The position numbers were made by a program, and so were the translations under genes. This document shows positions 31,229 through 50,100 of a stretch of DNA of 64,000 nucleotides, piece by piece. Origin of the DNA: Thermoanaerobaculia bacterium (lineage in GTDB: Bacteria; Acidobacteriota; Thermoanaerobaculia; Multivoradales; JAGPDF01); NCBI GenBank assembly GCA_963712855.1, contig CAVQJN010000001.1, forward strand, positions 742,747 to 806,746, in the 5' to 3' direction. Numbering within the stretch: the first letter of the stretch is position 1; every line of letters starts with the position of its first letter. A model generated the notes under the pieces. The model was not told the origin of the DNA and searched no databases. It worked only from the letters and a program-made list of their open reading frames with translations.

Positions 31229-34200
31229 ATGAATAGGCAGCCGGGGTCATCTCAGTCCGTCCGTGTTCTCCTGATTCTGCTGATAGCGTTCGTCGGATCG
31301 CAGACAGCAGCGAGATCCGACCCGCCTCAGTTGTATGCGTTCACAGGCGATCCTACGCCCCTCGGGACTCGCACTCCCTTGATCCTGATTCATGGTCTTC
31401 AACCGAATTGCGACGAGACATACGAAGGAGTCTGGGCAAACTTCGTGTGGAACGAGTGGGCGAACAACGTCGAACTCCGACAGAAGACAAAAGTGTACCT
31501 ATTGAGGTACGAAACCGTCCAAGGAAAACTGGCATCCGGCGACCCTACAAACGTTGCATCTGTGGCTACAGCTCTCGGTGAGCAACTGGAGTCGAGTCAA
31601 CAATTCCCTGAGTTCTCGGGAAAGGACTTTCTCTTAGTCGCGCACTCCTTGGGTGGTCTAGTCGCCAGGTCCTTCATGCAGCAATTCCGATTCTCTGATG
31701 GAACTCTGGGGGGGGCCCGAGTCCTCAGGCTGATTACTTTAGCCACTCCACACCATGGCAGCCCAATTGCCAACATAGCTGAAGGCTACCCATCGGTCTG
31801 GTGCCTCACTCCTAGCAACGGATTTCTTCAAGACCTTTCATGGGATGCGTACGATGGCTTCCTCTTCCTCTTGGATCCGTGCAACCCCTGGTTAGGAAGC
31901 TTGAATATCAGCGGAGGCGCGCCCTCATATGCCACTCAAGCGTGCGCATATCAGGACGTACCTGGAGAAGATGGTGAGTTCTCGAAAATCTTCGCCTACG
32001 GCGGCGAGACGACACCTCTCGCTGCCACGCTCGATTTCGTTCTCTCGAATTCACTATTGAATGCGCGCGGATACGAGCACAATGACGGTCTAGTGCCGCT
32101 TGGTAGCGCTCTATTCGACGGGGTATCCCTTGGCGCCAAACGCACGGTAATCGCTCCCTGTAACCATGGCCAGATCGTTGGTGGATCGTGCAGCGTCATC
32201 TATGACAACGGAGATATTGCCAGTGTCTTTGACGCGGTGGCCAATGATCTGCTAGCAGCGCTTAACGAGGATCCAACACCAGTCATCATGTCGGTAAGCC
32301 CCAGCGTCTTGGCAACTGAGCCACTTCCTCAGACACAGCGTTTGACGATTTCAGGGAGTGATTTTGCGCCTGACGCCACTCTGACGTTCTTTGACGGAAG
32401 TTCCCACTATGTGGGGCGATCTCCCATTCCGCCAGTACAGCCTAACCAACTTCAATACGACATTGCTGCGGGCCCGTACGAAGGTGCTTGGACTGTCCAG
32501 GTGGTTAACGGCACGAAGGCTTCGAACGAATTTCCGTTCTGGGTTGTCGACACGCCGGGCAACGACGACACAGCACCACCCGCACCGATCGACCCACAGA
32601 TGTCACCAGCATCCTGGGGCAACCCAATTCTCTTCTACCTCGACTGGGCGAATCCAGCCGATCCCTCTGGAGTCACCAAAGTCTGGTGGAAGTGGGACAG
32701 CCCGCCCACATTTCAGGGTGACGGCATTGGACTTGCCCTCCCACTCTTCAAACCGCTCCCCGTTGCACCTGTCACAGAGGGTGCGCGAACGATCTATTTC
32801 TGGCTTGAGGATGGGAGTGGAAACTCCGATTTCCACAACTGGGCCAGTGCCACCGCTTACTACGATGTAACTGCGCCGTCGCTCTCGATTGACGAGAGTC
32901 CGGACGGTTCCCCCATTCAGATCGCCAGCAGCCAGCTGATCTTGCACGGGTCGGCCACGGACAACCTCAGCGGCGTCGGTGGCATTAGCTGGATGAGCAA
33001 CCGCGGTGGTACAGGAGGCGCAACGGGGACAACCAACTGGTCAACGTCATCGATCCTGCTTGCTCCAGGCGACAACGTGATCACTGTCTCAGCCACTGAC
33101 CGCGCGGGCAACTCGGCATCCGAATCGCTTACCGTGACCTCGACCGCCCAGCCATCGGCCTGCGGTCCCTGGGAGTGGGACTCACCAGTGTCGAACGTGG
33201 CGAGCGCCGCTGCCTATGGGGATGGCAAGTGGGTGGCAGTCGGCTACAGCGGTGCGATCTGGACGAGTCCGGATGGGGTCACTTGGACTCCGCAGACGAG
33301 CTCAGTGGCCCAGAGCCTCAACGACGTCATCTGGACCGGCAGTCAGTTTATGGCGGTCGGTAACAACGACACGATCCTGACCAGCCCGGATGGGGTGAAC
33401 TGGCAGGTCGTGAGGTCCTCATCGGTCTTTAACTACTACGGCGTGGCCTGGAACGGATCGCAGTATGTGCTCGTGGGTCGTGGGGCCTCCCCGACAACGA
33501 CGAGCCGGGGTTGGATGTGGACGAGCTCGGACGGCGCGGTCTGGACACAACGCTTCTACGACCCTGACACCAACTACAGATCACCGATCTGGAGCGGGAC
33601 GTTGTTCGCCCTGCTCGACAACAAGGGCAACGTCTACACCAGCCCGGACGGCGCCAACTGGACCAGCCAAAACATCTCGGCCACGGGATTGAACGACGTC
33701 GCCTGGAGTGGCACCGAGTACCTCATCACCCAGGGCACCACCGTCTACACCAGCCCCGACGCCGTCACCTGGACTCCTCACTCCATCACTCCTTCGCTCA
33801 GCCACGTGATCTGGGCCGGCAACCGCTTCGTAGCAACCAGCGGTCCTCAGATCTGGTCGAGTGCGGACGGGCTGAGCTGGACATTGGAGACCACCGACGG
33901 CAATGGCGACATCAACGACCTTGCCTGGAGTGGCAACCAAGCCATCGCGGTCAGTGGTGGAGAGTCCTTCTGGAGGCAGAGCTGCACGCTTCCCGCTGCG
34001 GATTTCCGCTTCAGTCCGGCTACACCGTTGCGCAACCAGCCGGTCGCCTTCTTCGACCAGTCCACCGCTAGTCCGACGGCCTGGAGCTGGGACTTCGGCG
34101 ACGGCCAGGGAAGCTCGCAGCAGGATCCGACCCACACCTATGGCCAAGGTGGCGTCTACTCGGTGAGCCTCGCCGCGACCAACGCCTTCGGCACGGACAG

Positions 34201-37200
34201 CACCCAGCAGCAGATCACCGTCTCGCTACCGACCAGCCCGTGCAGCCCCTGGGAGTGGGACGCCCCGGTGGCGAGCCCGGTCAACGCGGCGACCTACGGC
34301 AATGGCCAGTGGGTGGCGGTGGGCAATTCCGGATGGATCGGGACGAGCCCGGATGGGGTGACCTGGACGCAGCAGACGAGTCCGGTCACGACCAAGCTGC
34401 TCGATGTCATCTGGACGGGCAGCCAGTACATGGCAGTCGGCTTCGCCGGCACGATCCTGACGAGCCCGGACGGAGTCACTTGGCAAGCCAGCAACAGCAT
34501 CTCCGGCGTTTACGACCTCTATAGCGTAGTCTGGAGCGGCTCACAGTACCTGCTCGTGGGAAGACTCCCGAGCACCACGAGGAGCTATGTTTGGACGAGC
34601 TCGGACGGTCACGTCTGGGCCCAACGTCTCTATGGACCTGACACCACGTACCTCCATCCGATCTGGAGTGGGACGCTCTTCGTCCTGCTCGACAACAAGG
34701 GCAACGTCTCCACCAGTCCGACGGGCGCGAACTGGACGACCCAGAACATCTCGGCCAGCGGATTGAACGAAGTGGCTTGGAGCGGCACCGAGTACCTGAT
34801 CACCCAGTGGACCACGGTCTACACCAGCCCCGACGCCGTCACCTGGACTCCTCACTCCATCACTCCTTCGCTCAGCCACGTGATCTGGGCTGGCAACCGC
34901 TTCATTGCCGCCGGAGGAACCGGGACGACACAGATCTTCTCCAGTCCCGATGGACTCAACTGGACCTTGGAGACCACCGACGGTAATGGCGGCATCAACG
35001 ACTTGGCTTGGAGTGGCAATCAAGCCGTGGCGGGTGCAGGAGCTTCTTTCTGGACCCAGAGCTGCACAATTCCGACAGCCGACTTCCGCTTCAATCCGGC
35101 AGCACCTCTACGCAACCAACCTGTCGCCTTCTTCGACCTCTCCAGCGCCAATCCAACGTCATGGAGCTGGGACTTTGGTGACGGCCAGGGGAAGCTCCCA
35201 GCAGGATCCGACCCACACCTATGGCCAAGGTGGCGTCTACTCGGTGAGCCTCGCCGCGACCAACGCCTTCGGCACGGACAGCACCCAGCAGCAGATCACC
35301 GTCTCGCTACCGACCAGCCCGTGCAGCCCCTGGGAGTGGGACGCCCCGGTGGCGAGCCCGGTCAACGCGGCGACCTACGGCAATGGCCAGTGGGTGGCGG
35401 TGGGCAATTCCGGATGGATCGGGACGAGCCCGGATGGGGTGACCTGGACGCAGCAGACGAGTCCGGTCACGACCAAGCTGCTCGATGTCATCTGGACGGG
35501 CAGCCAGTACATGGCAGTCGGCTTCGCCGGCACGATCCTGACGAGCCCGGACGGAGTCACTTGGCAAGCCAGCAACAGCATCTCCGGCGTCTACGACCTC
35601 TATAGCGTGGTCTGGAGCGGCTCACAGTACCTGCTCGTGGGAAGACTCCCGAGCACCACGAGGAGCTATGTTTGGACGAGCTCGGACGGTCACGTCTGGG
35701 CCCAACGTCTCTATGGACCTGACACCACGTACCTCCATCCGATCTGGAGTGGGACGCTCTTCGTCCTGCTCGACAACAAGGGCAACGTCTCCACCAGTCC
35801 GACGGGCGCGAACTGGACGACCCAGAACATCTCGGCCAGCGGATTGAACGAAGTGGCTTGGAGCGGCACCGAGTACCTGATCACCCAGTGGACCACGGTC
35901 TACACCAGCCCCGACGCCGTCACCTGGACTCCTCACTCCATCACTCCTTCGCTCAGCCACGTGATCTGGGCTGGCAACCGCTTCATTGCCGCCGGAGGAA
36001 CCGGGACGACACAGATCTTCTCCAGTCCCGATGGACTCAACTGGACCTTGGAGACCACCGACGGTAATGGCGGCATCAACGACTTGGCTTGGAGTGGCAA
36101 TCAAGCCGTGGCGGGTGCAGGAGCTTCTTTCTGGACCCAGAGCTGCACAATTCCGACAGCCGACTTCCGCTTCAATCCGGCAGCACCTCTACGCAACCAA
36201 CCTGTCGCCTTCTTCGACCTCTCCAGCGCCAATCCAACGTCATGGAGCTGGGACTTTGGTGACGGCCAGGGGAGCTCCCAGCAGGATCCGACCCACACCT
36301 ATGGCCAAGGTGGCGTCTACTCGGTGAGCCTCGCCGCGACCAACGCCTTCGGCACGGACAGCACCCAGCAGCAGATCACCGTCTCGCTACCGACCAGCCC
36401 GTGCAGCCCCTGGGAGTGGGACGCCCCGGTGGCGAGCCCGGTCAACGCGGCGACCTACGGCAATGGCCAGTGGGTGGCGGTGGGCAATTCCGGATGGATC
36501 GGGACGAGCCCGGATGGGGTGACCTGGACGCAGCAGACGAGTCCGGTCACGACCAAGCTGCTCGATGTCATCTGGACGGGCAGCCAGTACATGGCAGTCG
36601 GCTTCGCCGGCACGATCCTGACGAGCCCGGACGGAGTCACTTGGCAAGCCAGCAACAGCATCTCCGGCGTCTACGACCTCTATAGCGTGGTCTGGAGCGG
36701 CTCACAGTACCTGCTCGTGGGAAGACTCCCGAGCACCACGAGGAGCTATGTTTGGACGAGCTCGGACGGTCACGTCTGGGCCCAACGTCTCTATGGACCT
36801 GACACCACGTACCTCCATCCGATCTGGAGTGGGACGCTCTTCGTCCTGCTCGACAACAAGGGCAACGTCTCCACCAGTCCGACGGGCGCGAACTGGACGA
36901 CCCAGAACATCTCGGCCAGCGGATTGAACGAAGTGGCTTGGAGCGGCACCGAGTACCTGATCACCCAGTGGACCACGGTCTACACCAGCCCCGACGCCGT
37001 CACCTGGACTCCTCACTCCATCACTCCTTCGCTCAGCCACGTGATCTGGGCTGGCAACCGCTTCATTGCCGCCGGAGGAACCGGGACGACACAGATCTTC
37101 TCCAGTCCCGATGGACTCAACTGGACCTTGGAGACCACCGACGGTAATGGCGGCATCAACGACTTGGCTTGGAGTGGCAAGGAGTTGGTTGCCGGAGGAG

Positions 37201-38381
37201 GCGCTGGCGCAATCGGAACGCAGGGCTGCAACGATGCTGTGGATCTCCAGGTCACTGGGCCCTCGGTGAGCTCCACCTCTCCAGAACCCGGTTCAGATCT
37301 TGTCGTCTACATGACCGCCTCGAACCTCGGCACAGATCCCAGCAATGCAACTACGCTGGTTTACTACCGCTCATCGGATGCCGTGATCTCCTCCGCCGAT
37401 ACGGAGATCGGTCAGGACTCGATCTCCAGCTTGGCCGGTGGGGCGAGCTCTCCACAGAATCTGCAGACAACTGCCCCGAGCAGCGACGGGACGTACTGGT
37501 TTGGAGCCTGCATCCTGCCAACTGGCGATGAGTCCAATGTATCCAACAATTGTTCGACCGGAGTTGAGGTTGATGTGGTGTCCCACCCCGACCTCGTCGT
37601 CATTGACCCGTCAGTCGACAACGCGGCCCCAGCACAGGGACAGCAGATCACTATCCACGCGACCGCCAAGAATTCAGGAATCGCCGCATCAGCTGCGACA
37701 AACCTCACTTACTACCTCTCCCCGGACCCGACAATCACTTCTGGCGACACGTCGCTCGGTCAGAAATCCGTCCCAGCGCTGTCGCCAAATGGCACCTATC
37801 CGGACAGCCTTCAGACTACTGCGCCGCCCGCCACAGGCAACTATTGGCTTGGCGCATGCGTTCAGTCTGTCAGTGGTGAGACCAATGTCTCCAACAACTG
37901 TTCGACCGGCGTGGAGATTCAAGTTGGGCCCGCTTGCACAGACGATGAATTCGAGCTCCTCGGGAGCGACAACTCTGATGACACCTGCTACGGCGCCAGC
38001 GTCGTGCCAGGAGTCGCGCAGCAACATCTTCACTGCGACGAAGACTGGGTTCGCTTCGTGCCAGATGCAGGAGCTACCTACCGCATCGAGACTTCATCCC
38101 TAACTGGTGGAGCCGACACAACACTCGCGCTACACCAAGACTGTGGTCAGCAGCAGTTGGCGTTCAACGACAACTTCACAGGCCTCGCATCACGAATCGA
38201 CTGGACCGCTACAGGTACCGCGCCGATCGATATCAGAATCCAAGAAAGGGCCGGTACTTACGCAACTGGGGAGGGCTACACCATCTCCGTGTCTTGCATC
38301 GCCGGATGCGCGCCCGTCCCAATCTTCGCCGACGGCTTCGAGGACGGCACTCTTTGCGCATGGTCGAACGGAGGATGCTAG
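31229..38381 (+). CDS. Giant secreted multidomain protein: alpha/beta-hydrolase (lipase-like) + Ig-like domains + 4x [BNR/Asp-box beta-propeller + PKD] + 2x CARDB + PPC-like C-terminal domain; single frameshift near 35192
   Basis: Signal peptide; ILIHGL...VAHSLGGLVAR (GxSxG serine hydrolase). Repeated YG(D/N)G(K/Q)WVAVG...TSPDGVTWT (SxDxGxTW Asp-boxes) blocks, each followed by PKD (WDFGDGQ...THTYGQGGVYSVSLAATNAFG). CARDB-like segments at 37230-37900. C-terminus ...IFADGFEDGTLCAWSNGGC. ORFs 31229-35605 and 34905-38381 differ by a 1-nt insertion (GGGGAAGCT versus GGGGAGCT in the other copies). Confidence 0.75.
34221..37180 (+). repeat. Near-perfect tandem repeat, unit 1080/1081 bp, ~2.7 copies (preceded by a more diverged copy from ~33150)
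   Basis: The same >100-nt strings recur at 34264, 35345 and 36425 (offsets 1081 and 1080). Each unit encodes one beta-propeller plus PKD module. Confidence 0.9.
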
Positions 38382-38657
38382 CTAGCCGAACCTTGCTCTT
38401 CCACCGAAGTAGTCCGCTTGAGGTATCCAATATGGAACAAGCCTAGGCGTTCTTCGCTTCTTACCTACTTCTCCCGTCCGATCAGACTGCCGGGAAGAGA
38501 CCGAACCTTTGACCTGCTCCCCGCAACTCGGACCAGTGGAAATCAACAACCCCACAAGATGGGCTCTTGAGCTTGCGAGATCGCCCCAAAGCGGTCGACC
38601 CCAAGTCTTCTGAGGGGTACATTAGAGGTATCCTCAGCCTGACGAGCCACAAGCCCT

Positions 38658-39917
38658 GTGCCCCTCGCACCGAGACCCTTCATGTCATCTCTTCTTCAGA
38701 CTGAGCTCGCCTCGCGACACCTGTGCAATGCTTGCATTGTTGACCGACAGTTCCTAAGGGGCACCCTCCAGCAGCAGCGAGCTAAAGCTCGACATGCACT
38801 CCAACTGGTCGATCTCTACTGTGGAGCCGGGGGACTCTCTCTGGGAGCCGCGATTGCGGCGCGGCGCTACGCCACTAACGTCGACGTGCGTCTAGCCGCC
38901 GACTCGTGGCAGCCAGCCATCGACGTTTATTGCAGCAATTTCGAGATTGAGCAGGCACGAGTCGCCGCGGTAGAGGATCTCTTCGATGGCGAGCTTGGCT
39001 CTACCCGCCGAACTCGAAGTGAGAGAGCGCTACGCGACAGTGTCGGTCCGGTCGGTCTTCTGGTTGGTGGTCCGCCCTGCCAGGGATACTCGGATCTCAA
39101 CAACCACAGCCGCCGGCGTGATCCCAGGAATCGCCTGTATGCCCGAATGGCGAGGGCCGCAGAGGTCCTGACGCCCAAGGTGATCGTGATCGAAAACGTG
39201 CCAGCTGTTATCCACGACGACGAGAACGTCGTCGCCGTCACGAGCTCGGCGCTCGATGACGCTGGCTACGATGTAATGGGACAAGTCTTCGACATGAGCG
39301 CACTTGGCTTGCCCCAGACTCGCAGACGCCATCTGCTCCTTGGAGTCCAGCGAGGTTTGGGCAGGGCGAGAGTCATGCTCGACGCCATCGCCCCAAACTG
39401 CCCTGTCCACCAGCCAAGAACTGTTCGGTGGGCGATCGAGGATCTCGCAAGGCTGGTGCCGAAGAGTCTCTTCGACCAGCCCAGCCGCAACAGTAGAGAG
39501 AACTCCGCGCGCATCCAATGGCTCATGACCCATGACGCATACGATCTGCCCAATCGAATGAGGCCGCGCTGCCACCGCGGTGAGCATTCCTACAAATCGA
39601 TGTACGGGCGCCTTCGCTGGGACGCGCCTGCGCAGACGATCACGACAGGTTTCGGATCGATGGGACAGGGGCGATACGTGCATCCGAGCGAGGCCCGGAC
39701 GATCACACCGCATGAAGCGGCGCGTCTCCAGTCGTTCCCGGATAGCTTCTCGTTCGCGGCGGCACCCAACCGTGGCGCTCTCGCCCAATTGATCGGCAAC
39801 GCCGTTCCCCCACTCTTCGCCGCTGCCGTGATCTCCACCATCCTCTCGACGCTATTTCCCGGGTCGGCTCGCCGCATCACACGCCGCCCCCCCCAAGGCA
39901 CCGCACGCAATGGCTAA
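38658..39917 (+). CDS. dcm: DNA (cytosine-5)-methyltransferase
   Basis: Motif I LYCGAGGLS, motif IV GGPPCQGYS, motif VI ENV, motif X QLIGNAVPP. 419 aa. Confidence 0.9.
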   Translation: MPLAPRPFMSSLLQTELASRHLCNACIVDRQFLRGTLQQQRAKARHALQLVDLYCGAGGLSLGAAIAARRYATNVDVRLAADSWQPAIDVYCSNFEIEQARVAAVEDLFDGELGSTRRTRSERALRDSVGPVGLLVGGPPCQGYSDLNNHSRRRDPRNRLYARMARAAEVLTPKVIVIENVPAVIHDDENVVAVTSSALDDAGYDVMGQVFDMSALGLPQTRRRHLLLGVQRGLGRARVMLDAIAPNCPVHQPRTVRWAIEDLARLVPKSLFDQPSRNSRENSARIQWLMTHDAYDLPNRMRPRCHRGEHSYKSMYGRLRWDAPAQTITTGFGSMGQGRYVHPSEARTITPHEAARLQSFPDSFSFAAAPNRGALAQLIGNAVPPLFAAAVISTILSTLFPGSARRITRRPPQGTARNG

Positions 39918-40338
39918 TCCGGGCACGCCGCGCGCCTCCTCTCTTCAGGCAGCGAAGAGGATGCGTGCAACCCGACAGCGGGACACCAAAGCAGAGATGG
40001 CCATTCGTTCAGCCCTTCACCGGATGGGTCTGCGGTATCGAGTGCAGGCGAGTCCGATTCCCGGTTCGAGGCGCCGTGCAGACATCATCTTCCTGAAGGA
40101 GAGGGTTGCCATCTTCGTCGACGGCTGCTTCTGGCACGGCTGTCCGGAGCATGCCTCGACGCCCCGCGTCAATCGCGCTTGGTGGGTGGAGAAGCTAGCG
40201 GCGAATCGACGCCGCGACCGAGATACTGACCATTGCCTGGCGGCGGCCGGTTGGACAGTCTTGCGCTTCTGGGAACACGAGGATCCTCTCGCCGTCGCCA
40301 ATGGGGTCCGAAACCTGGTGATCTCCAAGCGGAAGTGA
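39910..40338 (+). CDS. vsr: Very-short-patch repair endonuclease Vsr
   Basis: FVDGCFWHGCPEH...W and the overall 142-aa Vsr pattern. Overlaps the dcm stop by 8 bp. Confidence 0.9.
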   Translation: MANPGTPRASSLQAAKRMRATRQRDTKAEMAIRSALHRMGLRYRVQASPIPGSRRRADIIFLKERVAIFVDGCFWHGCPEHASTPRVNRAWWVEKLAANRRRDRDTDHCLAAAGWTVLRFWEHEDPLAVANGVRNLVISKRK

Positions 40339-40362: not shown

Positions 40363-42189
40363 TCAGTTCAACCCGAAGTACCGCTTGACCAACTCTCGGT
40401 CGAGTAGACGGTTCTGGAACTCGCAGCTCGTCTCCGGCAGCAGCGAACACGCGTGGCAGGCGGCCAGGTTGAGCGATCCCGGCCCCTGCCCGGCGCTCTC
40501 GCTGCAAATCGGATCCGAGGCGCACCACATGGCGTCTTCCAGAGCACGCTTAAGTATTGGTTCCAGTCTGCCCGGTTTCCCAAGTTCAACGAGGCCCCCG
40601 AGCGTACCGTCCGCGTCCCCAGCCGCGGTATAGAGGAGGATCCCGCCCATTTGCACCCCCGCGACTACCGGCGCAGAGTAGATCCGCTCTCGGATCGATG
40701 AGGCGCCATAGCCCGCCTCGAAGGCGAGGCGTTTGATCAGGAGATGGGCCAGCGTGTGGAGGAAGACGAGCTCGACGGTCGGGGGGAGGACGCACCTCCC
40801 CCATTCGTTTGCACGGCGGAGGAGATCGGCGTGCCGGTGATCAACGTGCTCGGAGAGTCCCGCCAGTTGGTCGAGATCGACCGTCAGGAAGATCCCTTCG
40901 CCATGGACGCGGAAAGCGGGGAGCCAATCCAGCGGCCGAAGACTCAGCGCCGACGGTGGCGCAGCCGAATCGTCGATGCGATGGAACCCAGTGAGTACCC
41001 TCGTCTCGGCTAATCGCTCGACGAGGCCCACGTGGGAGAAGCAGCCTCGCACCGGCTCCGAGTACTCCCGGAGGTCTTGGGGGCGGCACACTAGGAGGTC
41101 TTGGACGTCGCGACGCTCCTGGTGGAGCGCCCTGTACTCGGCATCGCGGAAGGCGATCTCGCTCTCCGGATCGTCGATCCCGCGGCCCGCCCGCAAGGCA
41201 TCGTAGGCGGCCCGGAGTTGCTCGGCGTCGACGCCTTTCATTGCGGCGATCACCCGGAAGGTACGGATATCGGGATCTCGCTCCGAGTCGAGTAGATCTC
41301 GAACTCTCGGCTCCTCGAGGATCTGTGCCACACGCGAGGAGTACGGAGGAATCAGGATCGAGCTCGCAGTTTTCGGGAAGTAGACGTTGGACGCGCCTCG
41401 TTGCAGCGCGAGGAGGTTCGACGACCCTCCAGGTTCCATGGGTCCGTTGCACGTCTCGACACCGTCCGGACCCAGCCATGGTCTCCTCCCCCGACATCGC
41501 AAGCCACGCACGCCCGTCGGGCTCGTCGAGCCCATGAGAGAGCGACGTTTGCCGCATGTCGCGCACTCGACCAGCAAGCCACCGAGACCTCCCATCTTAG
41601 TGGCGAAGAAGTAGAGTCGAGGCGGACTGCACCCGGTGTCCCATTCGAGAGCGCGATCCCTCGCCGAGTGAACCCATTCGTTCCACGGGAAGTCGTCGAT
41701 GTGTCCCTGGCGACAGGCGACGACGAATCGGAGCGGCAGCATGCGCGGCCGGCGGCGGTCAGGGAGGGTCCCGCAGGGCGGCTTGCCTCGCAGCCTCGGC
41801 GACGGGTGTGAGTTGCCGCACCGAGGCGGATTGAGCGCGAAGAGCTCCACCCGCTCCAGCCAACGGCAGCGGGGACAGAAGTGCCACTGGGGAAACCGAA
41901 CGTACGGGAGCGGTGCCATCGTTCCTGGTGCGACTCCACGCTCCGGCCTGGGCGGCGGCGTCAGGAAGTGACGCACCCCAAGCCGCGCGGCAAGTCGTTG
42001 GTCGAACAGCTTCGGCGCTTCGTTCGTCGGCCAGACGTCGATACCTGCCGCCATTAGTGCCTCGTCCTCGAACTCAACGATCGCCCCGACGCCGAACGGG
42101 ACGATCGACTGTGTGCGGCGCGTCGCGCGGCGCGTCACACGGCACCCCCTCGACCGGCGCCGTAACGCGGGACGACGTCGGCTCCGCAC
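40363..42189 (-). CDS. DUF1998-domain protein (DISARM DrmB-like)
   Basis: C-terminal ...GSLNLAACHACSLLPETSCEFQNRLLDR is the DUF1998 Cys4 motif, and additional Cys clusters occur in the N-terminal half. Last gene of the minus-strand operon; the start may be slightly internal to 42189. Confidence 0.7.
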   Translation of the reverse strand: MRSRRRPALRRRSRGCRVTRRATRRTQSIVPFGVGAIVEFEDEALMAAGIDVWPTNEAPKLFDQRLAARLGVRHFLTPPPRPERGVAPGTMAPLPYVRFPQWHFCPRCRWLERVELFALNPPRCGNSHPSPRLRGKPPCGTLPDRRRPRMLPLRFVVACRQGHIDDFPWNEWVHSARDRALEWDTGCSPPRLYFFATKMGGLGGLLVECATCGKRRSLMGSTSPTGVRGLRCRGRRPWLGPDGVETCNGPMEPGGSSNLLALQRGASNVYFPKTASSILIPPYSSRVAQILEEPRVRDLLDSERDPDIRTFRVIAAMKGVDAEQLRAAYDALRAGRGIDDPESEIAFRDAEYRALHQERRDVQDLLVCRPQDLREYSEPVRGCFSHVGLVERLAETRVLTGFHRIDDSAAPPSALSLRPLDWLPAFRVHGEGIFLTVDLDQLAGLSEHVDHRHADLLRRANEWGRCVLPPTVELVFLHTLAHLLIKRLAFEAGYGASSIRERIYSAPVVAGVQMGGILLYTAAGDADGTLGGLVELGKPGRLEPILKRALEDAMWCASDPICSESAGQGPGSLNLAACHACSLLPETSCEFQNRLLDRELVKRYFGLN

Positions 42190-45100
42190 TCCACGTCAAC
42201 GTTCCGCATCGAGCTGAGCGTCTCCCAACTCTCCTCCTCGCCCTCTCTAGCCACGGTCCCGGCGACCCGCATGAGGACTCGCATGTCCTGGGGTGGGCCG
42301 AAGGTTCCCCACGATGCGGCAGAGCTCTCCTCCCACTCCTGGAGCCGCCTCGCCAAGACCTCTTCGAACTCCCGGTAGTGCTCTGGGTCGATGCGCCTCA
42401 CCCGCTCGCGGATCCGGTCGATCGCTGCGGCGAACGCTGGATCCGAAGCATCGAAGTCCCTCGGCGTGGCCCAGCCGGCGGCGTGCCGGCCGGCGATCAC
42501 CAGTACGGCGTGGAGAGCTCGGTCAAGCGACGGCACGGAATAGGGCGTGACGCTCGTCGGCTCGACGTCGCGATAGAACGCCTCGTGGAAACTGCGGAAC
42601 TGCTCGTAATGCGAGCGGTCTCGCGGCCGGTTGGCATTGTAGAGCGTGAGAATCAGGCCCGGGCCCTTGCTCGAGCGCCCGACGCGGCTGCTCGCCTGGA
42701 TGTACTCCGCGGTGCTCTTCGGCTGGGTCACGATCATCATCAGTCCGAGTCGGTCGACGTCGACGCCGACCGAGATCATATTGGTGGCGAGGACCGTGTC
42801 CAGGGCCTGGTTGCCCCATTGCGCGCCCTTCGTGTACGGCACCTCCAATCGCTTCAAGATCCTCGGGATCTCCTCCTGGTCCTTGCGGCTCGTCAGCTCC
42901 TCTGCGATCCGCATATAGCGGCGCTCGTCGGCGCCGAGCCCGTAACGACGGTGCATGGTCGGCAGGAATTCCGGGATGTCCGAGGTGATGAAGGTCGCTG
43001 CCCGCCCGAGCTCGCGCAGGCTCGAGTAGTATTGGATCAGGGTCCAATAGGGATCAACGATCCCGTCGGGCGCCGCGCCCCCGGCAACGATCGGCACGCC
43101 CTGCTGCATGGCGACGACGGCCCGGATCTGGGCCGTCAGCGGCGAGGAGGCCGCTGTCGGCAACAGGCCGAGGTAGATCCTCCCTGGCTGGTTTGCGTCT
43201 TCGATCGCAAAGTAGGAATCCGAGGCCTCCAGCCCGGGAGGCGGAAACTGGAAGAGCTCGCGGTCGAAGAGCGCCCTCGCCTGCCGGCCCGCGTGCCGGA
43301 TGGTCGCTGTGGAGGCGATGATCTTCGGTCGGTGCGTGCCGCGCGAGCAGAGATGGTCGATGATGCCCTCGTATGCGCCGACGATCGACCCCAGCGGCCC
43401 CGAGATCAGGTGGAGCTCATCCTGGATGATGAGATCGGGCCCTGCGCCGATCCCGAAGATTGCCCCGGCCTGCTCACGCCAAGCGAGCATCGCAAACTTG
43501 TCGACCGTACCGATGAGGAGCGTCGGCGGGGCGCGATAGATCGATTCGTCGACCACGCAGATCGGGAGGCGATTTGCGATCTCGGAGAAGGGACAGGGCC
43601 CAACCTCGTCTCCTCGACTCGGGCAGACGAAGATCTGCCGGCCGCCACGGTCGAGGTATCCCAGGCGCTCCAGGTTGTCCATCTCCGTGCCACACCATGG
43701 ACACGAGAGCAGTTGGAACGGGTTCTTGGCATCCCAGGCACGTGCCTGCAGTCGGCTGAGCATTCGAAGCGCATCTCCCTCGTTGTTCGGAGTGAGTGAC
43801 AACCCGACCCAGAGTCCGATGGAGATCGGTTCGATGCCGAAGCTCTCTGGCGCCTCGCGTCGGATCAGCTCGCAAGCGCACACCAGCGACGCCGCTCGCT
43901 GGAACTGCTGGCTCGTCAGGAGGCGCAAGGTGTAGCGCATCAAAACTCGACAACCCCGGCGCTCGGGATCGTCGAGCCGACCGCGAAGAATTGCGAAGGC
44001 TGAGGCACCCAAGTACGCCTCGGTCTTGCCGCCGCCCGTCGGGAACCAAATGAGGTCCACGAGCTCGCGATTCGGCGGCCCGAGCTCGCGAGCCACCCAA
44101 GAGTCGGGGTCGCTCACGAGACCAGGCAGCACCATCAGCAGGAAGCCGAGCTGGAACGACCGCCAGTGGCCAGAGCGTGACTCCCAATCGGACCGATAGT
44201 CCCGCTTGCCGGGAAGCGGAACCCAGGGGTCGTCGAGCTTCCGTCGCAATCGGGAGTGATAATGCTGCATCAGCATCGCCCGGTTCATGGCCATGAAGGC
44301 GCTCATCGATCTCAGGTCCGACTCCAGGAGCTCGATACCGCTCCGCATCCTCCCCAGCGCCTCTCGACAGCGCTCGACGTTCGAGCACGCGACCGGCTGC
44401 AATCGGTCCTCGAGATCCACGACCCGCGCTTCCAGGTCAACGATCCACGCTTCGTACTCGTGGCAGAACTCGTAGAGGGCCGCCGGGATCTCGCGGCCCG
44501 GATCGCCGTCGCAATCGCCTGCCAAGAACTGCATGCTCAGATAGCGCTCCCCGCTCGCCTTTGGCACGATCGGGGCGACCTCGACCACCGGTATCGTCGC
44601 CGTGCGTAGCTCCGTCGCTCGCTCGCCTCGGCAGGAGGTCCAGTCCGCGGCACAGCCGTGACCGATGGCGAAGACGCGGCGCTCTCTGTAGAGCATCTCG
44701 AGAGCCAGTTCCTCGAGCTCGTCGCTTCGGCCCTCCGGGCTTCGATACTCGACGAACGCCGGGCGACCGTCTCGTGCACGGACGGAGAGACCGACCTGAA
44801 AGAACATCTGACCTCGTTGCCCCTTCGTGCGGTTGTAGACGCTCAGAGTCACCAGTCGCTGCCCGCTCTCTCGTCGCCGGCTCACGACTCGGAGGCGAAG
44901 ACCGGGCACGACTTCTAGGTCCTGGACCGGTTCAGCCGTGGGATCCACGCTCTGCGGTTCGATTCCCAGTGGCCGGCGATGCCAAGACGTTCGCTCTCGC
45001 CCCTCAATCGTTTCAGTATGGCTATCGTAGACAGCAGCCGAGACCTCGACGACGAGCCCCCCCTCGGGCGGATCCAACAGAAAGCTCAGAGCCATCGCCG

Positions 45101-45419
45101 AGGGGCGGTACTGATTGGCGAGGGTCACCCCGTCGTCATAGACGTCCCGCGCCTCCCGCGCCTCACCCTCTCCGGGCTCGAACTCGACCTCGGCCGCCTC
45201 AAGCTCGATTGGTTCGCCGTCGGCTTCGCCGGTCTCGCCCTCGACGCCGGCGATCGCGTCCGACTCGTTGCTCGTCGACTCCTGCGGGAACAGGACCCCA
45301 GCGAGATAGCGAATCGCCGGGGGCTCCTCAAGCGTCTCGCCGATACCCTGCGCCGGCCCGACGAGGTCCCTCACCAGGAACTCGACGAGGCCCAGGCGAA
45401 ACTCGCTGGGGTCGTTCAT
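42135..45419 (-). CDS. SF2 DExH-box helicase with ~450-aa N-terminal domain (DISARM DrmA-like)
   Basis: Motif I FPTGGGKTEAYLG, motif II DELHLISGP, motif III IASTAT, motif VI IQASSRVGRS. Start overlaps the stop of the upstream gene (ATGA at 45416-45419). Confidence 0.7.
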   Translation of the reverse strand: MNDPSEFRLGLVEFLVRDLVGPAQGIGETLEEPPAIRYLAGVLFPQESTSNESDAIAGVEGETGEADGEPIELEAAEVEFEPGEGEAREARDVYDDGVTLANQYRPSAMALSFLLDPPEGGLVVEVSAAVYDSHTETIEGRERTSWHRRPLGIEPQSVDPTAEPVQDLEVVPGLRLRVVSRRRESGQRLVTLSVYNRTKGQRGQMFFQVGLSVRARDGRPAFVEYRSPEGRSDELEELALEMLYRERRVFAIGHGCAADWTSCRGERATELRTATIPVVEVAPIVPKASGERYLSMQFLAGDCDGDPGREIPAALYEFCHEYEAWIVDLEARVVDLEDRLQPVACSNVERCREALGRMRSGIELLESDLRSMSAFMAMNRAMLMQHYHSRLRRKLDDPWVPLPGKRDYRSDWESRSGHWRSFQLGFLLMVLPGLVSDPDSWVARELGPPNRELVDLIWFPTGGGKTEAYLGASAFAILRGRLDDPERRGCRVLMRYTLRLLTSQQFQRAASLVCACELIRREAPESFGIEPISIGLWVGLSLTPNNEGDALRMLSRLQARAWDAKNPFQLLSCPWCGTEMDNLERLGYLDRGGRQIFVCPSRGDEVGPCPFSEIANRLPICVVDESIYRAPPTLLIGTVDKFAMLAWREQAGAIFGIGAGPDLIIQDELHLISGPLGSIVGAYEGIIDHLCSRGTHRPKIIASTATIRHAGRQARALFDRELFQFPPPGLEASDSYFAIEDANQPGRIYLGLLPTAASSPLTAQIRAVVAMQQGVPIVAGGAAPDGIVDPYWTLIQYYSSLRELGRAATFITSDIPEFLPTMHRRYGLGADERRYMRIAEELTSRKDQEEIPRILKRLEVPYTKGAQWGNQALDTVLATNMISVGVDVDRLGLMMIVTQPKSTAEYIQASSRVGRSSKGPGLILTLYNANRPRDRSHYEQFRSFHEAFYRDVEPTSVTPYSVPSLDRALHAVLVIAGRHAAGWATPRDFDASDPAFAAAIDRIRERVRRIDPEHYREFEEVLARRLQEWEESSAASWGTFGPPQDMRVLMRVAGTVAREGEEESWETLSSMRNVDVECGADVVPRYGAGRGGAV

Positions 45420-47182
45420 CGTATCGCCTCGCTCTGTCCAAACGATCTCTCGATCTCAGCTTCTAACCTCTCATGACGCCGTGCCTCGCAGTCCTCACGA
45501 AGGATCGTGACGAGGCGGTAGCGGGCGCGCGACATTCCGACATAGGCGATCGAACGCCACCAGTCGTCGTCGATTTCATCGAGACCCGCCAAGATCACAA
45601 CGTCATTCTCAAGCCCCTTGAAGCTCGACACGGTCGACCAGGTACCCGCCACGCCCTTCCCCGACGAACGGCCCTGGTGCGTCCTGCCCTCGTATCGCCG
45701 GAGGCCCATCCCTTCGAGGAGAACCTCCTCGTTCGGCTTGGGAGTTCGGGGGAGGAGCACCGAGAGCCTCTCGCTCGTCAGCTCCTGGGGGCCCAATCTG
45801 GCGACGACCTCGCGGAGCACCTCGAATTGGCCCTTGCGGTCTCGATAGGTCACGAATTCGACCGGCGGACCTTCCGCGCGTGCCTCGCACCGCACCCGTG
45901 GATTCGCGACGACGTGCGTCTGAATGGCAATCGGCCGCGTGTTCCGGCAGTTGGCGGTCAAGAGGTGGGTCGGGGCCAGGCTCCGGATTCGCGTCAGCAA
46001 GTCTTCGTCCAGTCGGCCGTAGACACACGCCTGGTTGTTGATGTCCATGAACAGTCGCCAGCGGCCCGACTCGAGCCCACCGAAAACGAGGAACGACAGG
46101 ACCTCGAAAACGCTGGGACCGAGGACGTCCTGGGCTTCGTCGATGATCAAGACGTCATACGGCGCCAGGACCTCCTCCAGGCAAGCGAAACCCGCGTACT
46201 CCGGATAGAGAAGCTCGAAGACAAGCGCGGGATCCATCGAGCTCGATCGGCGCACGAACTCCTCCTCGAGCGACGAGCGCTCGATCAGGCGCCGGAACAG
46301 GGCGTGGACCGTCTGGACCTCGACGCTCCCGGAGAACCGCTCGCCGTCGACCAGACTCCGGAGTCGACCTGCCAGGAACCGATTGAAGCAAAGCAGCAAA
46401 GCGCGACGGCCTTGGCGCGCCTCGCGCCGAGCAGCTTCGGCAGCCAAAATCGTCTTGCCCGAGCCAGCGGCGCCCTCGACCAGCAATCGGGGCGCTTCGG
46501 CAGCGACCTCGAGGACTACGGCCTGTTCCCGAGTCAACGACGCGAGTCGTTCCAGCGTGTCCTCGACGACGATGTCCATCGACGGAACGAGGTCGAAATC
46601 GCCGCGGGCGAGTTCGACGGTCGCCTGTATCTCCCGCAGAGTGAGCCGCGCAGTTGTTCGTCCCGCCTTCCTCTCGGCGAACCGCGCTAGCCGTTCGAGG
46701 TACGCGCCAAACGGCGCGTGCCGGTCGCGTACGTCGAAGACGAGCTCGGAATCGCCCTCAGGCCCCATTGAAGCGAACTCAATGTCCGGCAGGACGACTC
46801 CGTAGGCGAAGAGCGGCCCCCGGGCGGACTCACCCGCGACCCGCTCGCGCAGGATGCGCTCGAGTGCGAACATCGCGCTCGCCGCCTGGTCAAACGGGCC
46901 CTCGGCGCGGCGATGCTCCTGGCCGTATCGGTCCGTAAAGATCCAGATGCCCGCCTCGCGCCGGATGCGCCCACCCTTGACCTCCAGAACGAAGACGCCG
47001 CGCGGCGCCACGATCAGGAAGTCGATCTCGGCTCGACGCTTGGTCGGATGGCGCGCCAACCCGAGCGAGTGGAGGCACACCCACTCCTCCGACCCAACGC
47101 TCGTTTCGATCGTTCGGAAGATCCTCCTCTCGGCGCCACTGCGGACGCGAGAGTGGATGGTCGCCGGAATCATCCGCGCCAT
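45416..47182 (-). CDS. NERD-domain / UvrD-like (SF1) helicase fusion protein
   Basis: N-terminal NERD (…EIDFLIVAPRGVFVLEVKGG…), Walker A GAAGSGKT, motif II VLIIDEAQD, and C-terminal UvrD_C-like …KGLENDVVIL…YVGMSRAR. Confidence 0.65.
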   Translation of the reverse strand: MARMIPATIHSRVRSGAERRIFRTIETSVGSEEWVCLHSLGLARHPTKRRAEIDFLIVAPRGVFVLEVKGGRIRREAGIWIFTDRYGQEHRRAEGPFDQAASAMFALERILRERVAGESARGPLFAYGVVLPDIEFASMGPEGDSELVFDVRDRHAPFGAYLERLARFAERKAGRTTARLTLREIQATVELARGDFDLVPSMDIVVEDTLERLASLTREQAVVLEVAAEAPRLLVEGAAGSGKTILAAEAARREARQGRRALLLCFNRFLAGRLRSLVDGERFSGSVEVQTVHALFRRLIERSSLEEEFVRRSSSMDPALVFELLYPEYAGFACLEEVLAPYDVLIIDEAQDVLGPSVFEVLSFLVFGGLESGRWRLFMDINNQACVYGRLDEDLLTRIRSLAPTHLLTANCRNTRPIAIQTHVVANPRVRCEARAEGPPVEFVTYRDRKGQFEVLREVVARLGPQELTSERLSVLLPRTPKPNEEVLLEGMGLRRYEGRTHQGRSSGKGVAGTWSTVSSFKGLENDVVILAGLDEIDDDWWRSIAYVGMSRARYRLVTILREDCEARRHERLEAEIERSFGQSEAIR

Positions 47183-50100
47183 GCGTCCTCGTGAAGCCGA
47201 TTCGCCATAGACAATGGTACCGTCACTATCTCGGGATCAACCGACTCGATGACAACGAGTACGACCCGTTCCTCGATCTCAAGCACCTCATCGAGGACAG
47301 AGCCGCCCCGCAACCGATTCCGAACGCGAGCGACAACCTCTTGTGTGAGCTCATGTCCACACTTCTGGTGCAGCCGCCAAAGTGTCTCGATGGCTCGTTT
47401 GCAGGCAGCGAGGTCGGTCTGGAGACCACGGTCGCACGTCACCCGCAAGATGGCTTCCAGGTCCCTGTCGAAATCCCGAGGGCCGATCACCGTCTCGTCC
47501 TCCACCCAGCCTCGTAGGGTGGCCACCGTTCGTTTGCAGCCCTCCCTGGCGAGCTGGCGCTGGAGCTCCTGATATGAAAGGCCCGCGCGGAGCGCTCGTT
47601 CGAGCGCATCACGCCATGCTGCCGCCTGGTCGCGCAGCCCAGCCGGCGCGACGCGATCGACCGCGTCGCGGATCGCGTCTCGATCGCTTCCTCGCACGAG
47701 CAGCACGAGATCACCGGCACCAACCTCCGCAGCACGCTGCGGAACGAGCCGCTCCCCTGAGTCGCCGTCCACCTCCGTCGAGAGCAGCAACAACACGCGA
47801 TGTTCGGGCGTAAAGGCTGCCCAACCTCCACCAGCAAAGTAGACGAGCCGAGCCTCCACCGTCCGGTCATTTGCCAGGCCCAGCTGCTGAATTGCCCGAA
47901 TACGCCGACCGCGCAGGGCGATTTCGTCTGGGTCGGGCAGAATGATCGACGCTGACTCGGCGCCCTTCGGGTCGACTAGCGCCTGTCGCCGCACCGCACG
48001 GAAGGGGCGTTGGCGCTCCGTGAGCTCCCGAACTTCCGCAGCCGCTCGCGACGCCCTCGCGTTCGATCTCTCGAGCCATCCGAGCTCGGACTTGTAGAGG
48101 AGGAGTGTCATAGAACGAGCAATCGGCGGATACAGAAGCCTTTCCATGCGCTGCCGCCCGTACCAGGCTGGGACCAGGATCGGAGTCTCGGGATCGTCAG
48201 AATGCGGTCGGTCGAGCCACTGCAACTCGGGGGGTGTTGCGAGCTCGTTGAGGAATGTCCGGTCCTGACCAGGGACCGCCACGAGTCCTCCAGGGTGGTC
48301 GAATGACCAAGCCATTGCAGCCTCGAACTTTGGGTTGTTCCACTGCAGTGACTCGATCGCCTCGTGTGCACTCGCGAAAATACAATCGAATTGCTCCTTC
48401 CACTCGTCCCGCCACCACAGCTGTCTTTGGCGGACCGCCGCAGCCAGTTCGGTCCAGAGCTCCTGGAGCTGCTTCCACGTCGACCGGCCTGAAGGCGCAA
48501 GGAACCGGCAGATTCGAACGAGCGCCCCGATGCACTCGCTACAAGTCTCGGCCAGTGTCTCTACCTTCTCCCGTCGCGCCAGCGACTCGAGCTCCACAGC
48601 CGCTTCGAAGGCATGTTCGAGCCCAGGCAAATCGAGAGCGATGGATTTTGTCTGTGATCCCGAGCGACGACGGAACTCCCGTTCGAAATTTTGAACGACG
48701 GCTGGACCGTCGCTTCCCCTGGGCTGGGGCCACTCTAGGTTGCCAAGCCACTCGTCGCTCCACGTCCAGAATCCAAAGCCAGCTCTGGAGAACTGCTGCA
48801 GCGCCTCGCCATCGTGCTCGCTCGTGATCGCAAGTACCCGGCGGCCATCGCTAGCGATGCGGCAGAGGTTGGCGGCGTCTCTGGTCCCCGCGCCCACGGG
48901 AGAAACGACCGCCGCGACGGATGCATCGCTCTCGGCAATCTCAAGCGCCTCAGCCGTACTCTGCACGACCGTGAGAATCGGAGCTCCACCCGGACCGCGA
49001 CGCGTTGTCCATGTGTCGCGGATGAAACGACCATCTGCTAGACGTTCCCGGGAAATCGGCAGGAGATCAACGATCGGCGAGCCGAGAATCTTCAGCTCGC
49101 TCGCGAGATGCCTCGTCTCACCCGCAGGTCCAACAAAGAGGATCCGATTTCGCTCCGTGCGAAGTATCGCCGGCGATGGAAGCCCGAATATTTTTTCAAG
49201 AGTTCCGACCGGCTTCTTCGCCAGATTGAAGGCCACCCGGCCACCCTTCAACGCGTTGATTGCCTTCGCTCGACGAAGGCTTCGAATATCCTGAATTCGA
49301 TGAAACCTATGAATCGAATTCCCCTTCTTCCCAAGCTGGAGGAGCTCGAAATGTGTAGCCTCACCGGGGTCACACTCCTCCGCGTCCTCGTAGATCCGTG
49401 AGCCGTCGGGACACTTCACATACCCAACGAATTCAACCTCGCCTCTCCCTGCTGGACCGACTAGGCGCTCCCCCCGGCTAAAGGCAGGAACCGACCCCAA
49501 GTCGAGCACCCGCCTCACCTCGCTGAGAGCTCGCAATACTGCAATCAAGAACGGGAGCGGACCCAGACGCGACTGGATCAGCACCGATCCCTTCGCGCCG
49601 GTCTCAAGCACCGAATCCAGGACTAGCGCAGCGCTAACGAGGACGAACTCGGAGACGGGATAAGGATTGCTCTCCTCTCCAAGCGAGAGATCCATCACGA
49701 ACGGCCAGTCGCGAACGACGTCGTCGAGCAACGCACCGATCACCCCGCGCTCGGGATGGATCTCAGCGACGGCATGCTGGATGGCGGCTGCGTCGTCGAG
49801 CATCCCAACTGGCCCGAGATCATCTGGAATGGCGTCGGATACTTCGCTGAAGTAGGTCAGCGCAGCACGCGCAGCCTCGCAATGTCGAGGGCTCGCGCCG
49901 GGGTTCTCAAGCACTTCGACCAGAAGTCGAAGGCCCGCCGACAGCTTTCGGAAGTGATGACCGGAACGCTCGTGCTGGTCGGCGAACGCGCGCGCATTGT
50001 GGATCAGCTCCTGTTCCGAGAACGACTGGTCGCCCCGTGCTACCTCGAGCAGCGTTTCCATTTCCTCTCTCTCGGGCGCCTCAAGCTCCGGGAGCCACCA

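Follow-up and report, generated by a model that had tools for sequence, protein, structure and literature searches.

A NERD nuclease–helicase fusion as a probable integral component and candidate effector of a widespread DISARM variant lacking DrmC

The anti-phage system DISARM is widely distributed, and its execution step has still to be explained (PMC9142583). DrmC, its protein of the phospholipase D (PLD) type, is dispensable and in many cases absent, it fails to co-purify with DrmAB, and the degradation of DNA by the system "has remained a mystery" (PMC9142583). Which enzyme, then, destroys the invading DNA? The question is raised by a DISARM-like operon of a Thermoanaerobaculia bacterium (assembly GCA_963712855.1), located within a stretch of 64,000 nucleotides (nt) of contig CAVQJN010000001.1 (positions 742,747 to 806,746), hereafter called the window. 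This operon is devoid of a DrmC gene, and its minus-strand gene at 45416..47182 encodes a NERD nuclease domain fused to a UvrD-like helicase of superfamily 1 (SF1), hereafter the NERD-helicase. We favor, with modest confidence, the view that this protein is both an integral subunit and the executing, DNA-degrading enzyme of a DISARM variant in which it replaces DrmC. The observations behind this proposal are the domain architecture of the protein, its intact catalytic residues, its coupling to the operon, the synteny of related loci, its co-evolution with DrmA, DrmB and DrmE, and the absence of DrmC.

The open reading frame (ORF) at 45416-47182, verified by ORF calling and translation, encodes 588 amino acids (aa). 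Its true start is probably the fourth codon, M4 (ATG at 47173), leading to a protein of 585 aa, and a database entry (P0001) that is 100% identical to the window protein comprises 585 aa and starts at this same methionine. A word-indexed search returned 1594 homologs at E<=0.001, the best 120 of which share 41-100% identity with the NERD-helicase across nearly the full length, and in an exhaustive search 1314 representatives of 50%-identity clusters reached E<=1e-30; given these numbers, the gene is far beyond chance. Among the closer clusters that were sampled, a majority are DISARM-linked. Relatives are named "NERD domain-containing protein/DEAD/DEAH box helicase" by PGAP. NCBIfam r20 contains no model for the protein and none of its housekeeping families match it, nor do any of the DISARM-labelled PADLOC and NCBIfam models. 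Judged by these profile comparisons, the NERD-helicase belongs to no named defense family. The lack of a DISARM-labelled match agrees, as does the class scheme of 10.1101/2021.12.28.474362, with a prediction made earlier from the letters of the window (the original prediction), which had placed this architecture outside canonical DISARM.

The NERD domain, a nuclease domain of the PD-(D/E)xK type, occupies residues ~1-195 (46598..47182, minus strand), as delimited by Pfam, alignment and structural model. The Pfam NERD profile (PF08378) matches residues 17-114 with an E-value of 4.3e-12 (47 bits, for a cutoff of 22.1). The D ... (D/E/Q)xK catalytic signature is present on strands beta2 and beta3, where it is formed by D54, accompanied by E52 in an EID motif, and by E67-x-K69 in an LEVK motif; residues 52-71, which contain the whole catalytic set and correspond to the motif quoted in the original prediction, read EIDFLIVAPRGVFVLEVKGG. 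These four residues are invariant in an alignment of 42 homologs (41-80% identity) and in 49 of 50 locus sequences. In the AlphaFold2 model their positions are compatible with an alpha-beta-beta-beta-alpha-beta core, composed of helix H16-26, strands E35-38, E55-59 and E62-68, helix H96-115 and strand E125-130. The comparison of 50 family sequences, which reaches down to ~26% identity, found E52, D54, E67, K69, Q220, K243, T244, D348, E349, R413, K522, G523 and R552 to be essentially invariant. In 48 of the 50, not one residue of the nuclease site (E52/D54/E67/K69), of Walker A (K243/T244) or of Walker B (D348/E349) is lost, and the two exceptions are outgroups not linked to DISARM: L060, which is devoid of the NERD ExK motif, and L051, which carries a tyrosine at D348 (labels of this form denote the loci surveyed below). 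Non-conservation of the NERD motif residues, which the original prediction had named as a ground for abandoning it, is not what was found in these 50 sequences. The nearest curated relatives of the NERD region (residues 1-155) in NCBIfam are the N-termini of MAD6 from MADS (7.5e-9) and PglW from type 2 BREX (6.7e-5), so that NERD-like modules recur in three methylation-based defense systems.

The helicase core spans residues ~205-575 (45458..46570, minus strand) and was recognized by its motifs, by alignment and by Foldseek; it comprises a Q-motif, Walker A and B, and motifs III-VI. Among Pfam profiles, AAA_19 exceeds its cutoff (residues 225-363, 1.1e-6, 29.3 bits versus 25.1), SLFN-g3_helicase falls just below it (23.2 versus 24) and UvrD_C_2 remains below it (19 versus 27.4 bits). 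The motifs that can be read from the protein are the Q-motif LTREQ216-220, Walker A GAAGSGKT237-244, Walker B IIDEAQD346-352, DxNNQ380-384, NCRNT411-415, FKGLEND521-527 and YVGMSRAR547-554. This complete SF1 set is invariant in the alignment of 42 homologs, notably at Q220, G240/G242/K243, D348/E349/Q351/D352, D380/Q384, N411/R413/N414/T415, K522/G523/E525 and Y547/S551/R552. In the AlphaFold2 model, which was built from the same alignment and has a mean pLDDT of 83.7, the nuclease core is followed by two RecA-like lobes. Foldseek matched this model to SLFN11/14, Sen1, Upf1, UvrD, PcrA, RecD2 and Dna2 at E-values of 1e-15 to 1e-9 and 12-19% identity, with a probability of 1.0 for UvrD, PcrA, Rep, Upf1 and RecD2, and the NERD-helicase clearly belongs to SF1. 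The top folds are of the SF1B type (SLFN11/14, Sen1 and Upf1), with UvrD, of the SF1A type (UvrD/Rep, 3'-5'), close behind, and motifs III and IV look UvrD-like by eye. A sequence search against solved structures returned weak matches only, all to the helicase lobe (Upf1, HelD, GajB and SLFN11). The NERD plus UvrD-like architecture of the original prediction is thus upheld by Pfam, by the SF1 motifs and by Foldseek.

The genes of the operon succeed one another on the minus strand in the order DrmE - NERD-helicase - DrmA - DrmB, with a cytosine-C5 (C5) methylase and Vsr convergent to them. The first gene (47170..50421, minus strand) encodes a protein of 1083 aa that the original prediction had called unknown; it is in fact a member of the DrmE family, matching Pfam DrmE_C at 1.7e-10 (41.3 bits, cutoff 27) and NCBIfam DrmE_fam (NF038316) with 89.2 bits (cutoff 80). 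DrmA, the DISARM superfamily 2 (SF2) helicase (42135..45419, minus strand; 1094 aa), is recognized by PADLOC at 3.2e-210 and barely passes the cutoff of NCBIfam DISARM_DrmAS (NF038325; 950.1 bits for 950). DrmB, a DUF1998/MZB protein (40363..42138, minus strand), matches its PADLOC profile at 6.1e-74, Pfam MZB at 9.4e-11 and NCBIfam DrmB_fam with 434 bits (cutoff 240); its start is likely the GTG at 42138, the longest ORF beginning at 42189. On the plus strand lie a C5 cytosine DNA methyltransferase of the DrmMII type (38658..39917; Pfam DNA_methylase 5e-47), for which PADLOC DrmMII profiles reach 8.2e-41 and are outscored by the generic DruM/type II methylase models, and the very-short-patch repair endonuclease Vsr (39910..40338; Pfam Vsr 2.3e-18; TIGR00632, 124 bits), the usual partner of a C5 methylase. 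At the junction between the NERD-helicase and DrmA, the codons overlap by 4 nt as ATGA (45419-45416), and DrmA and DrmB overlap by 4 nt as GTGA. At the junction with DrmE, whose stop codon is at 47172-47170, the overlap is 13 nt if the ATG at 47182 is used and 4 nt, again as ATGA, if translation starts at M4 (47173). The 4-bp overlaps of the original prediction thus hold for the DrmA junction and, given the M4 start, for the DrmE junction as well. Through these junctions, the NERD-helicase is translationally coupled into the DrmE - NERD-helicase - DrmA - DrmB operon.

This arrangement is found far beyond the window, as indicated by two independent neighborhood surveys. For the first, one genome per species was scanned with the family alignment, yielding 64 NERD-helicase loci whose neighbors were assigned by tBLASTn and ORF clustering. 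DrmA and DrmB are adjacent to the NERD-helicase in 37 of these 64 loci, and in 37 of the 42 evaluable loci of its clade; among the related loci, DrmE is found upstream in 19, a homologous methylase in 30 and Vsr in 20. The second survey was anchored on DrmB in metagenomes and considered the best 80 of at least 584 loci, ranked by similarity to the DrmB of the window. A locus was evaluable if it contained complete DrmA and DrmB genes with at least 2 kb on each side (n=41), and the NERD-helicase is present in 35 of these 41 (85%), ahead of DrmA in 21 cases and directly after DrmB in 14. The association of the NERD-helicase with DrmAB spans at least 10 phyla. In neither survey does the cassette include another conserved nuclease. 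Layout A, which is that of the window ([methylase] DrmE - NERD-helicase - DrmA - DrmB [Vsr, methylase]), occurs in Myxococcota, Desulfobacterota, Planctomycetota, Acidobacteriota, Paenibacillaceae, Sphingomonas and others. Layout B, from actinomycetes, has a 1554-aa SF2 helicase in place of DrmE and, in many cases, a second SF1 helicase without NERD domain after DrmB; layout C consists of a UvrD-like helicase, DrmA, DrmB and then the NERD-helicase. The same triad, at ~30% identity, is present on a plasmid in both Deinococcus gobiensis and Rhodococcus opacus. The six-gene cassette of the window was found again in two metagenome contigs with unrelated flanks (L071 and L072), in the latter beside ParB and a toxin-antitoxin pair. 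Homologs that are mostly stand-alone housekeeping genes, the other ground on which the original prediction was to be given up, are therefore not what these surveys revealed.

In a neighbor-joining tree, a single clade gathers the 35 DISARM-linked sequences, the window protein and the protein of L011, a contig that ends just past the gene and carries DrmE upstream; the eight deepest branches of the tree are not DISARM-linked. Co-evolution was measured as the correlation of pairwise distances over 34 loci, or 17 in the case of DrmE. The distances of the NERD-helicase correlate with those of DrmA at r=0.982, of DrmB at 0.981 and of DrmE at 0.992, compared with 0.988 between DrmA and DrmB, which are known obligate partners, and 0.82 between the methylase and DrmA. 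In the Mantel test, 0 of 2000 permutations gave a value as high as that observed. These correlations match that of DrmA with DrmB and show that the NERD-helicase and the DrmAB core are inherited as a single unit, although a correlation alone is no proof of a physical or functional interaction. Taken with the two surveys and the translational coupling, it strongly supports the claim of the original prediction that the NERD-helicase is an integral component of the operon.

Another feature of these loci is the absence of DrmC. The operon of the window contains no PLD gene, and the gap between DrmB and the convergent Vsr gene is only 25 nt. A tBLASTn search of the whole 64-kb window with two DrmC proteins at E<=1 returned nothing, and nothing beyond HflX, tRNA-Ala, a histidine kinase, transposases and PKD-domain proteins came to light when the flanks (50.4-59.6 kb and 13-31 kb) were scanned with Pfam; a DrmC concealed elsewhere in the window was rejected on the basis of these searches. 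Nor was any DrmC found in the NERD-helicase loci examined by tBLASTn, by a hidden Markov model (HMM) built from two class-1 DrmC proteins and by Pfam scans downstream of DrmB. Iterated over 91 DrmB-anchored loci, the HMM recovered only its two seeds. L023, L027 and L028 gave weak tBLASTn matches to DrmC (E 0.02-0.7) in their UvrD-like genes, which we consider spurious. The mutual exclusivity of the NERD-helicase and DrmC was checked against two class-1 loci and plasmid annotations: both of the DrmC-positive class-1 loci inspected are devoid of a NERD-helicase, and their DrmC sits directly after DrmB. Canonical class-2 relatives did not emerge when DrmE was used as the query: the only 10 word-indexed matches were all from the same variant or marginal, and there were no plasmid matches. 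The six DrmB-anchored loci without a NERD-helicase are also devoid of a PLD gene downstream of DrmB. L105, a DrmE-DrmA-DrmB-methylase locus without a NERD-helicase, harbors in the post-DrmB slot a UvrD helicase of 971 aa to which a PD-(D/E)xK/Cas4-like nuclease is fused at the C-terminus (L105:12314-15226). Its domain order is reversed compared with that of the NERD-helicase, and it represents a convergent helicase-nuclease solution, presumably with the same function. The suggestion of the original prediction that the NERD-helicase might stand in for DrmC as the effector nuclease is consistent with the lack of DrmC, with the occupation of the post-DrmB slot in the 14 loci mentioned above and with the retention of the catalytic residues.

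How does this system compare with the described classes of DISARM? According to 10.1101/2021.12.28.474362, class 2 DISARM is defined by DrmA, DrmB and DrmC together with DrmMII, with or without DrmE; C5 methylation marks self, and DrmA, DrmB and DrmE are essential whereas DrmC is dispensable. Because DrmA, DrmB and DrmE pass curated thresholds, a DrmMII-type methylase is present and DrmC is lacking, the system of the window is, from its gene content, best described as a DrmC-less, class-2-like DISARM variant that is uncharacterized and widespread. It shares with class 2 systems of the Bacillus paralicheniformis type the three Drm proteins above their NCBIfam cutoffs, the order DrmE-DrmA-DrmB, an adjacent C5 methylase and, presumably, self-marking by methylation. 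It differs from them by the absence of a PLD-type DrmC, by the extra NERD-SF1 helicase between DrmE and DrmA (after DrmB in relatives), by Vsr as a regular companion, and by a methylase and a Vsr that are convergent rather than co-oriented.

A working model can be proposed on this basis. The C5 methylase would mark host DNA, and Vsr would repair the T:G mismatches that arise by deamination of 5-methylcytosine. The DrmAB complex would sense invading unmodified DNA with single-stranded ends, as in Serratia, whose DrmAB is auto-inhibited until unmethylated DNA bearing a single-stranded 5' overhang activates it (PMC9142583). The SF1 motor of the NERD-helicase would use ATP to translocate on and unwind the DNA flagged by DrmAB and DrmE, while its N-terminal PD-(D/E)xK site would cut this DNA in a metal-dependent manner. 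The NERD-helicase would in this way supply the DNA degradation once ascribed to the PLD-type DrmC of canonical DISARM. Its nuclease and helicase activities and its coupling to DrmAB are predicted, and its effector role is proposed by analogy with Nhi, Hachiman and AddAB/RecBCD. A stronger proposal, plausible but put forward more tentatively, is that the NERD-SF1 helicase is an obligate effector, loaded or licensed by DrmAB with DrmE onto unmethylated DNA, and that it defines a third major class of DISARM (DrmE/NERD-helicase/DrmA/DrmB/DrmMII/Vsr, without PLD protein).

A NERD-helicase encoded among DISARM genes need not, however, be a part of the DISARM machinery. It could be an autonomous, Nhi-like single-gene defense merely embedded in the operon, where co-regulation, co-transfer or complementary coverage would account for its retention, an explanation that we hold to be rather unlikely but the most serious competitor. 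Embedded genes are common in BREX, DISARM and type I restriction-modification (R-M) loci, where 96.7% are co-oriented and where they are often independent defenses (10.1101/2024.01.29.577857), and Nhi and "Nhi-like" (NERD-containing) proteins protect as single genes (10.1101/776245). In addition, more distant members of the NERD-helicase family are never DISARM-linked, and related NERD+UvrD proteins attend other systems, namely type III CRISPR (C3a187) and defense reverse transcriptases (RTasNERD-Hel). Several results of our own also weigh against an integral effector. Five lineages nested in the DISARM-linked clade have no DrmAB within 10 kb (L001, L004 and L018, which form one sub-clade, L025 and L036), L001 adjoining a type I R-M system, so that the protein is probably able to work alone. 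The NERD-helicase is also missing from 6 of the 41 DrmB-anchored loci, including DrmE-DrmA-DrmB-methylase systems, as well as from a Lactiplantibacillus plasmid locus (methylase-unknown-DrmA-DrmB), and thus is not universally required by this DrmAB clade. The co-inheritance of linked genes can by itself yield high mirror-tree correlations, and, as the DrmC probes were class-1 proteins only, a very divergent PLD protein could have escaped them. Yet an embedded gene is typically sporadic and variable rather than a fixed member of a cassette, whereas the association of the NERD-helicase with DrmAB extends over at least 10 phyla and, with either of two independent anchors, holds in ~85-88% of the loci that could be evaluated. 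Its co-evolution with DrmA, DrmB and DrmE equals that between DrmA and DrmB and exceeds that of the methylase, it moves from before DrmA to after DrmB and still remains in the operon, joined to its neighbors by stop and start codons that overlap, and DrmC never occurs in its loci.

If the NERD-helicase does belong to DISARM, it could nevertheless serve as a sensor, loader or regulator that recognizes DNA ends or modification state or remodels DNA to let DrmAB load, the killing being left to DrmAB-mediated blockage, to DrmE or to a host nuclease. We regard such a non-effector subunit as improbable, more so than an embedded module. DISARM may indeed block replication physically, with no dedicated nuclease (PMC9142583), and the helicase of Hachiman acts as the sensor (PMC12278908). 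Extra NERD-less SF1 or UvrD-like helicases in several related loci suggest that it is a helicase, and not the nuclease, that is recurrently required. The NERD domain, moreover, resembles the N-termini of the signaling kinases PglW (BREX/Pgl) and MAD6 (MADS), both from methylation-based systems, and in these kinases such domains may sense rather than cut, which also tells against an effector nuclease. Against a non-effector role, the full PD-(D/E)xK set is strictly conserved in every DISARM-linked sequence that covers it, which points to catalysis and not just to binding; in L105 the slot is filled by another fusion of a helicase with a PD-(D/E)xK nuclease, and the cassette has no other conserved nuclease. 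Finally, a housekeeping DNA-repair helicase-nuclease lying beside DISARM by chance is brought to mind by AddA/RecB and Dna2, which are repair enzymes of fused architecture, and by Dna2, UvrD and PcrA among the structural matches. The family is patchy across taxa, however, and is found in variable regions, on plasmids and among mobile or defense neighbors; its linkage to DrmAB is overwhelming, no NCBIfam housekeeping family matches it and its gene is translationally coupled within a defense operon. The chance of a housekeeping enzyme is thus minute, and the neighborhood surveys effectively refute it.

Among known proteins, the best functional analog of the NERD-helicase would be Nhi, which combines an N-terminal PD-(D/E)xK domain with an SF1 helicase of the DUF2075 type and requires both activities for immunity (10.1101/776245). 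Nhi (SERP2475) and the "Nhi-like" proteins share with the NERD-helicase the order of the domains, PD-(D/E)xK at the N-terminus and then a compact SF1 helicase (DUF2075/SLFN-g3 type), and homologs of the window protein match PF09848. Their sequence similarity is negligible, however: the PADLOC Nhi profile matches only the P-loop of the NERD-helicase (residues 232-264, E=0.008, 12.9 bits). Unlike Nhi, which acts alone, the NERD-helicase lies inside a DrmAB operon in the window and in ~85% of related loci, with a minority of stand-alone relatives. The closest PADLOC profiles are RTasNERD-Hel of defense reverse transcriptases (3.8e-30, residues 1-287) and C3a187 "NERD+UvrD" of type III CRISPR (6.9e-15). 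Both have in common with the window protein the NERD domain and the first helicase lobe, and both are accessories attached to a larger immune system; by contrast, the match spans about half of the profile, the operon of the window has no reverse transcriptase or cas gene, and the partner is DISARM. In Hachiman HamAB and in AddAB/RecBCD, a helicase is likewise coupled to a nuclease of PD-(D/E)xK fold that degrades aberrant or foreign DNA once engaged. Hachiman is a two-protein complex of an SF2 helicase and a DUF1837 nuclease, while AddA and RecB are far larger, carry their nuclease at the C-terminus and act in repair; no sequence-level relationship to the NERD-helicase was detected in either case. 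It is an AddA/RecB-like UvrD-PDDEXK fusion that fills the post-DrmB slot in L105.

A precedent for an alternative nuclease of the PD-(D/E)xK superfamily in DISARM-like operons is the RmuC-domain protein ShdA from Pseudomonas, whose embedded gene has been discussed as a possible accessory (PMC10270631). ShdA differs from the NERD-helicase in belonging to the RmuC rather than the NERD family, in having no helicase fusion and in being confined to Pseudomonas and to class-1-like operons. A study of the YprA family noted "many uncharacterized DISARM-like classes" and mentioned NERD only for the unrelated TALON system; its supplements contain no NERD, DrmE or DISARM-like matches. No paper joining NERD, helicase and DISARM was found in the searchable literature, although an earlier mention in Ofir et al. 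2018 or Makarova et al. 2011 is possible.

For a system whose execution step awaits an explanation, a large and phylogenetically broad variant with an intact nuclease-helicase, often in the position of DrmC, provides a concrete candidate effector. DISARM hereby joins type III CRISPR and defense reverse transcriptases as a recruiter of NERD+SF1 helicase modules. Nuclease-helicase modules being common, the architecture as such will not surprise specialists, and the weight of the finding lies in the wide spread of the variant. As PADLOC-DB 2.0 and NCBIfam r20 do not recognize the NERD-helicase as a DISARM component, such loci are likely under-called or called incomplete. Should the NERD-helicase be an obligate effector, the canonical DISARM classes would be no more common among environmental bacteria than the class it defines. 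The execution step would then be a swappable helicase-nuclease slot, filled by the PLD protein DrmC, by a NERD-helicase or by a UvrD-PDDEXK fusion, and the question of how DISARM destroys phage DNA would be answered.

Additional genes were encountered in the surveyed loci. A protein with AspBHI_N and Mrr_cat domains, a 5-methylcytosine-dependent type IV-like restriction enzyme, directly follows DrmB beside Vsr and the C5 methylase in several of them (L006:15089-16267, L013:16261-17556, L002:10707-11891, L010:17077-18255 and L033:19395-20555). As it is a modification-dependent nuclease in a C5-methylating system, either its specificity and that of the methylase do not overlap or it is an add-on against "methylated phage". 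The second, NERD-less SF1 helicase (~370-460 aa) after DrmB was seen in DrmAB loci of actinomycetes, Deinococcus and Photobacterium (L040:16663-17766, L032:11999-13207, L065:16735-17856 and L070:13925-15298), some of which also have a NERD-helicase, and is often followed by an unannotated protein of ~480-580 aa. Other helicases substitute for DrmE or accompany it in layouts B and C. One is a 1045-1587-aa SF2 (ResIII/Helicase_C) helicase (L034:5337-10001 and L024:69-3206), which has a Sacsin/HATPase-like N-terminus in actinomycetes. The other is a UvrD-family helicase of 600-850 aa (L024:3207-5015 and L028:2375-4933), making such DISARM-like cassettes very rich in helicases. Plasmid-borne DrmAB loci of Nostoc, Bacillus and Lactiplantibacillus encode a short or unrecognized protein at the DrmE position (L069:7380-8831, L067:7281-8804 and L075:5811-8216), of which only that of Nostoc matches DrmE_C (1.9e-6). 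These plasmid loci carry neither DrmC nor a NERD-helicase, which indicates that minimal DrmAB systems exist. One Rhodopirellula-type locus harbors a Ser/Thr protein kinase gene after DrmB (L015:10844-12013).

In the window itself, tRNA-Ala(ggc) (51399-51474) and HflX (51540-52721), both on the minus strand, lie just upstream of DrmE. GC content falls to 0.56-0.63 between positions of ~30 and 40 kb (30000-40000), compared with 0.67-0.70 in the flanks, and an rve-family integrase (16286-17353, plus strand) and an IS200-like Y1 transposase (21226-22155, minus strand) are found farther from the operon. A larger variable or integrated region beside the tRNA gene may include the DISARM locus. The methylase is adjoined by two very large PKD/CARDB-domain proteins with no obvious link to defense (31229-35605 and ~35600-38381, plus strand), the first of which has an N-terminal alpha/beta-hydrolase domain (DUF676/PGAP1-like). 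A gene for tRNA-Sec (selenocysteine, anticodon tca) is present at 8024-8123 on the minus strand.

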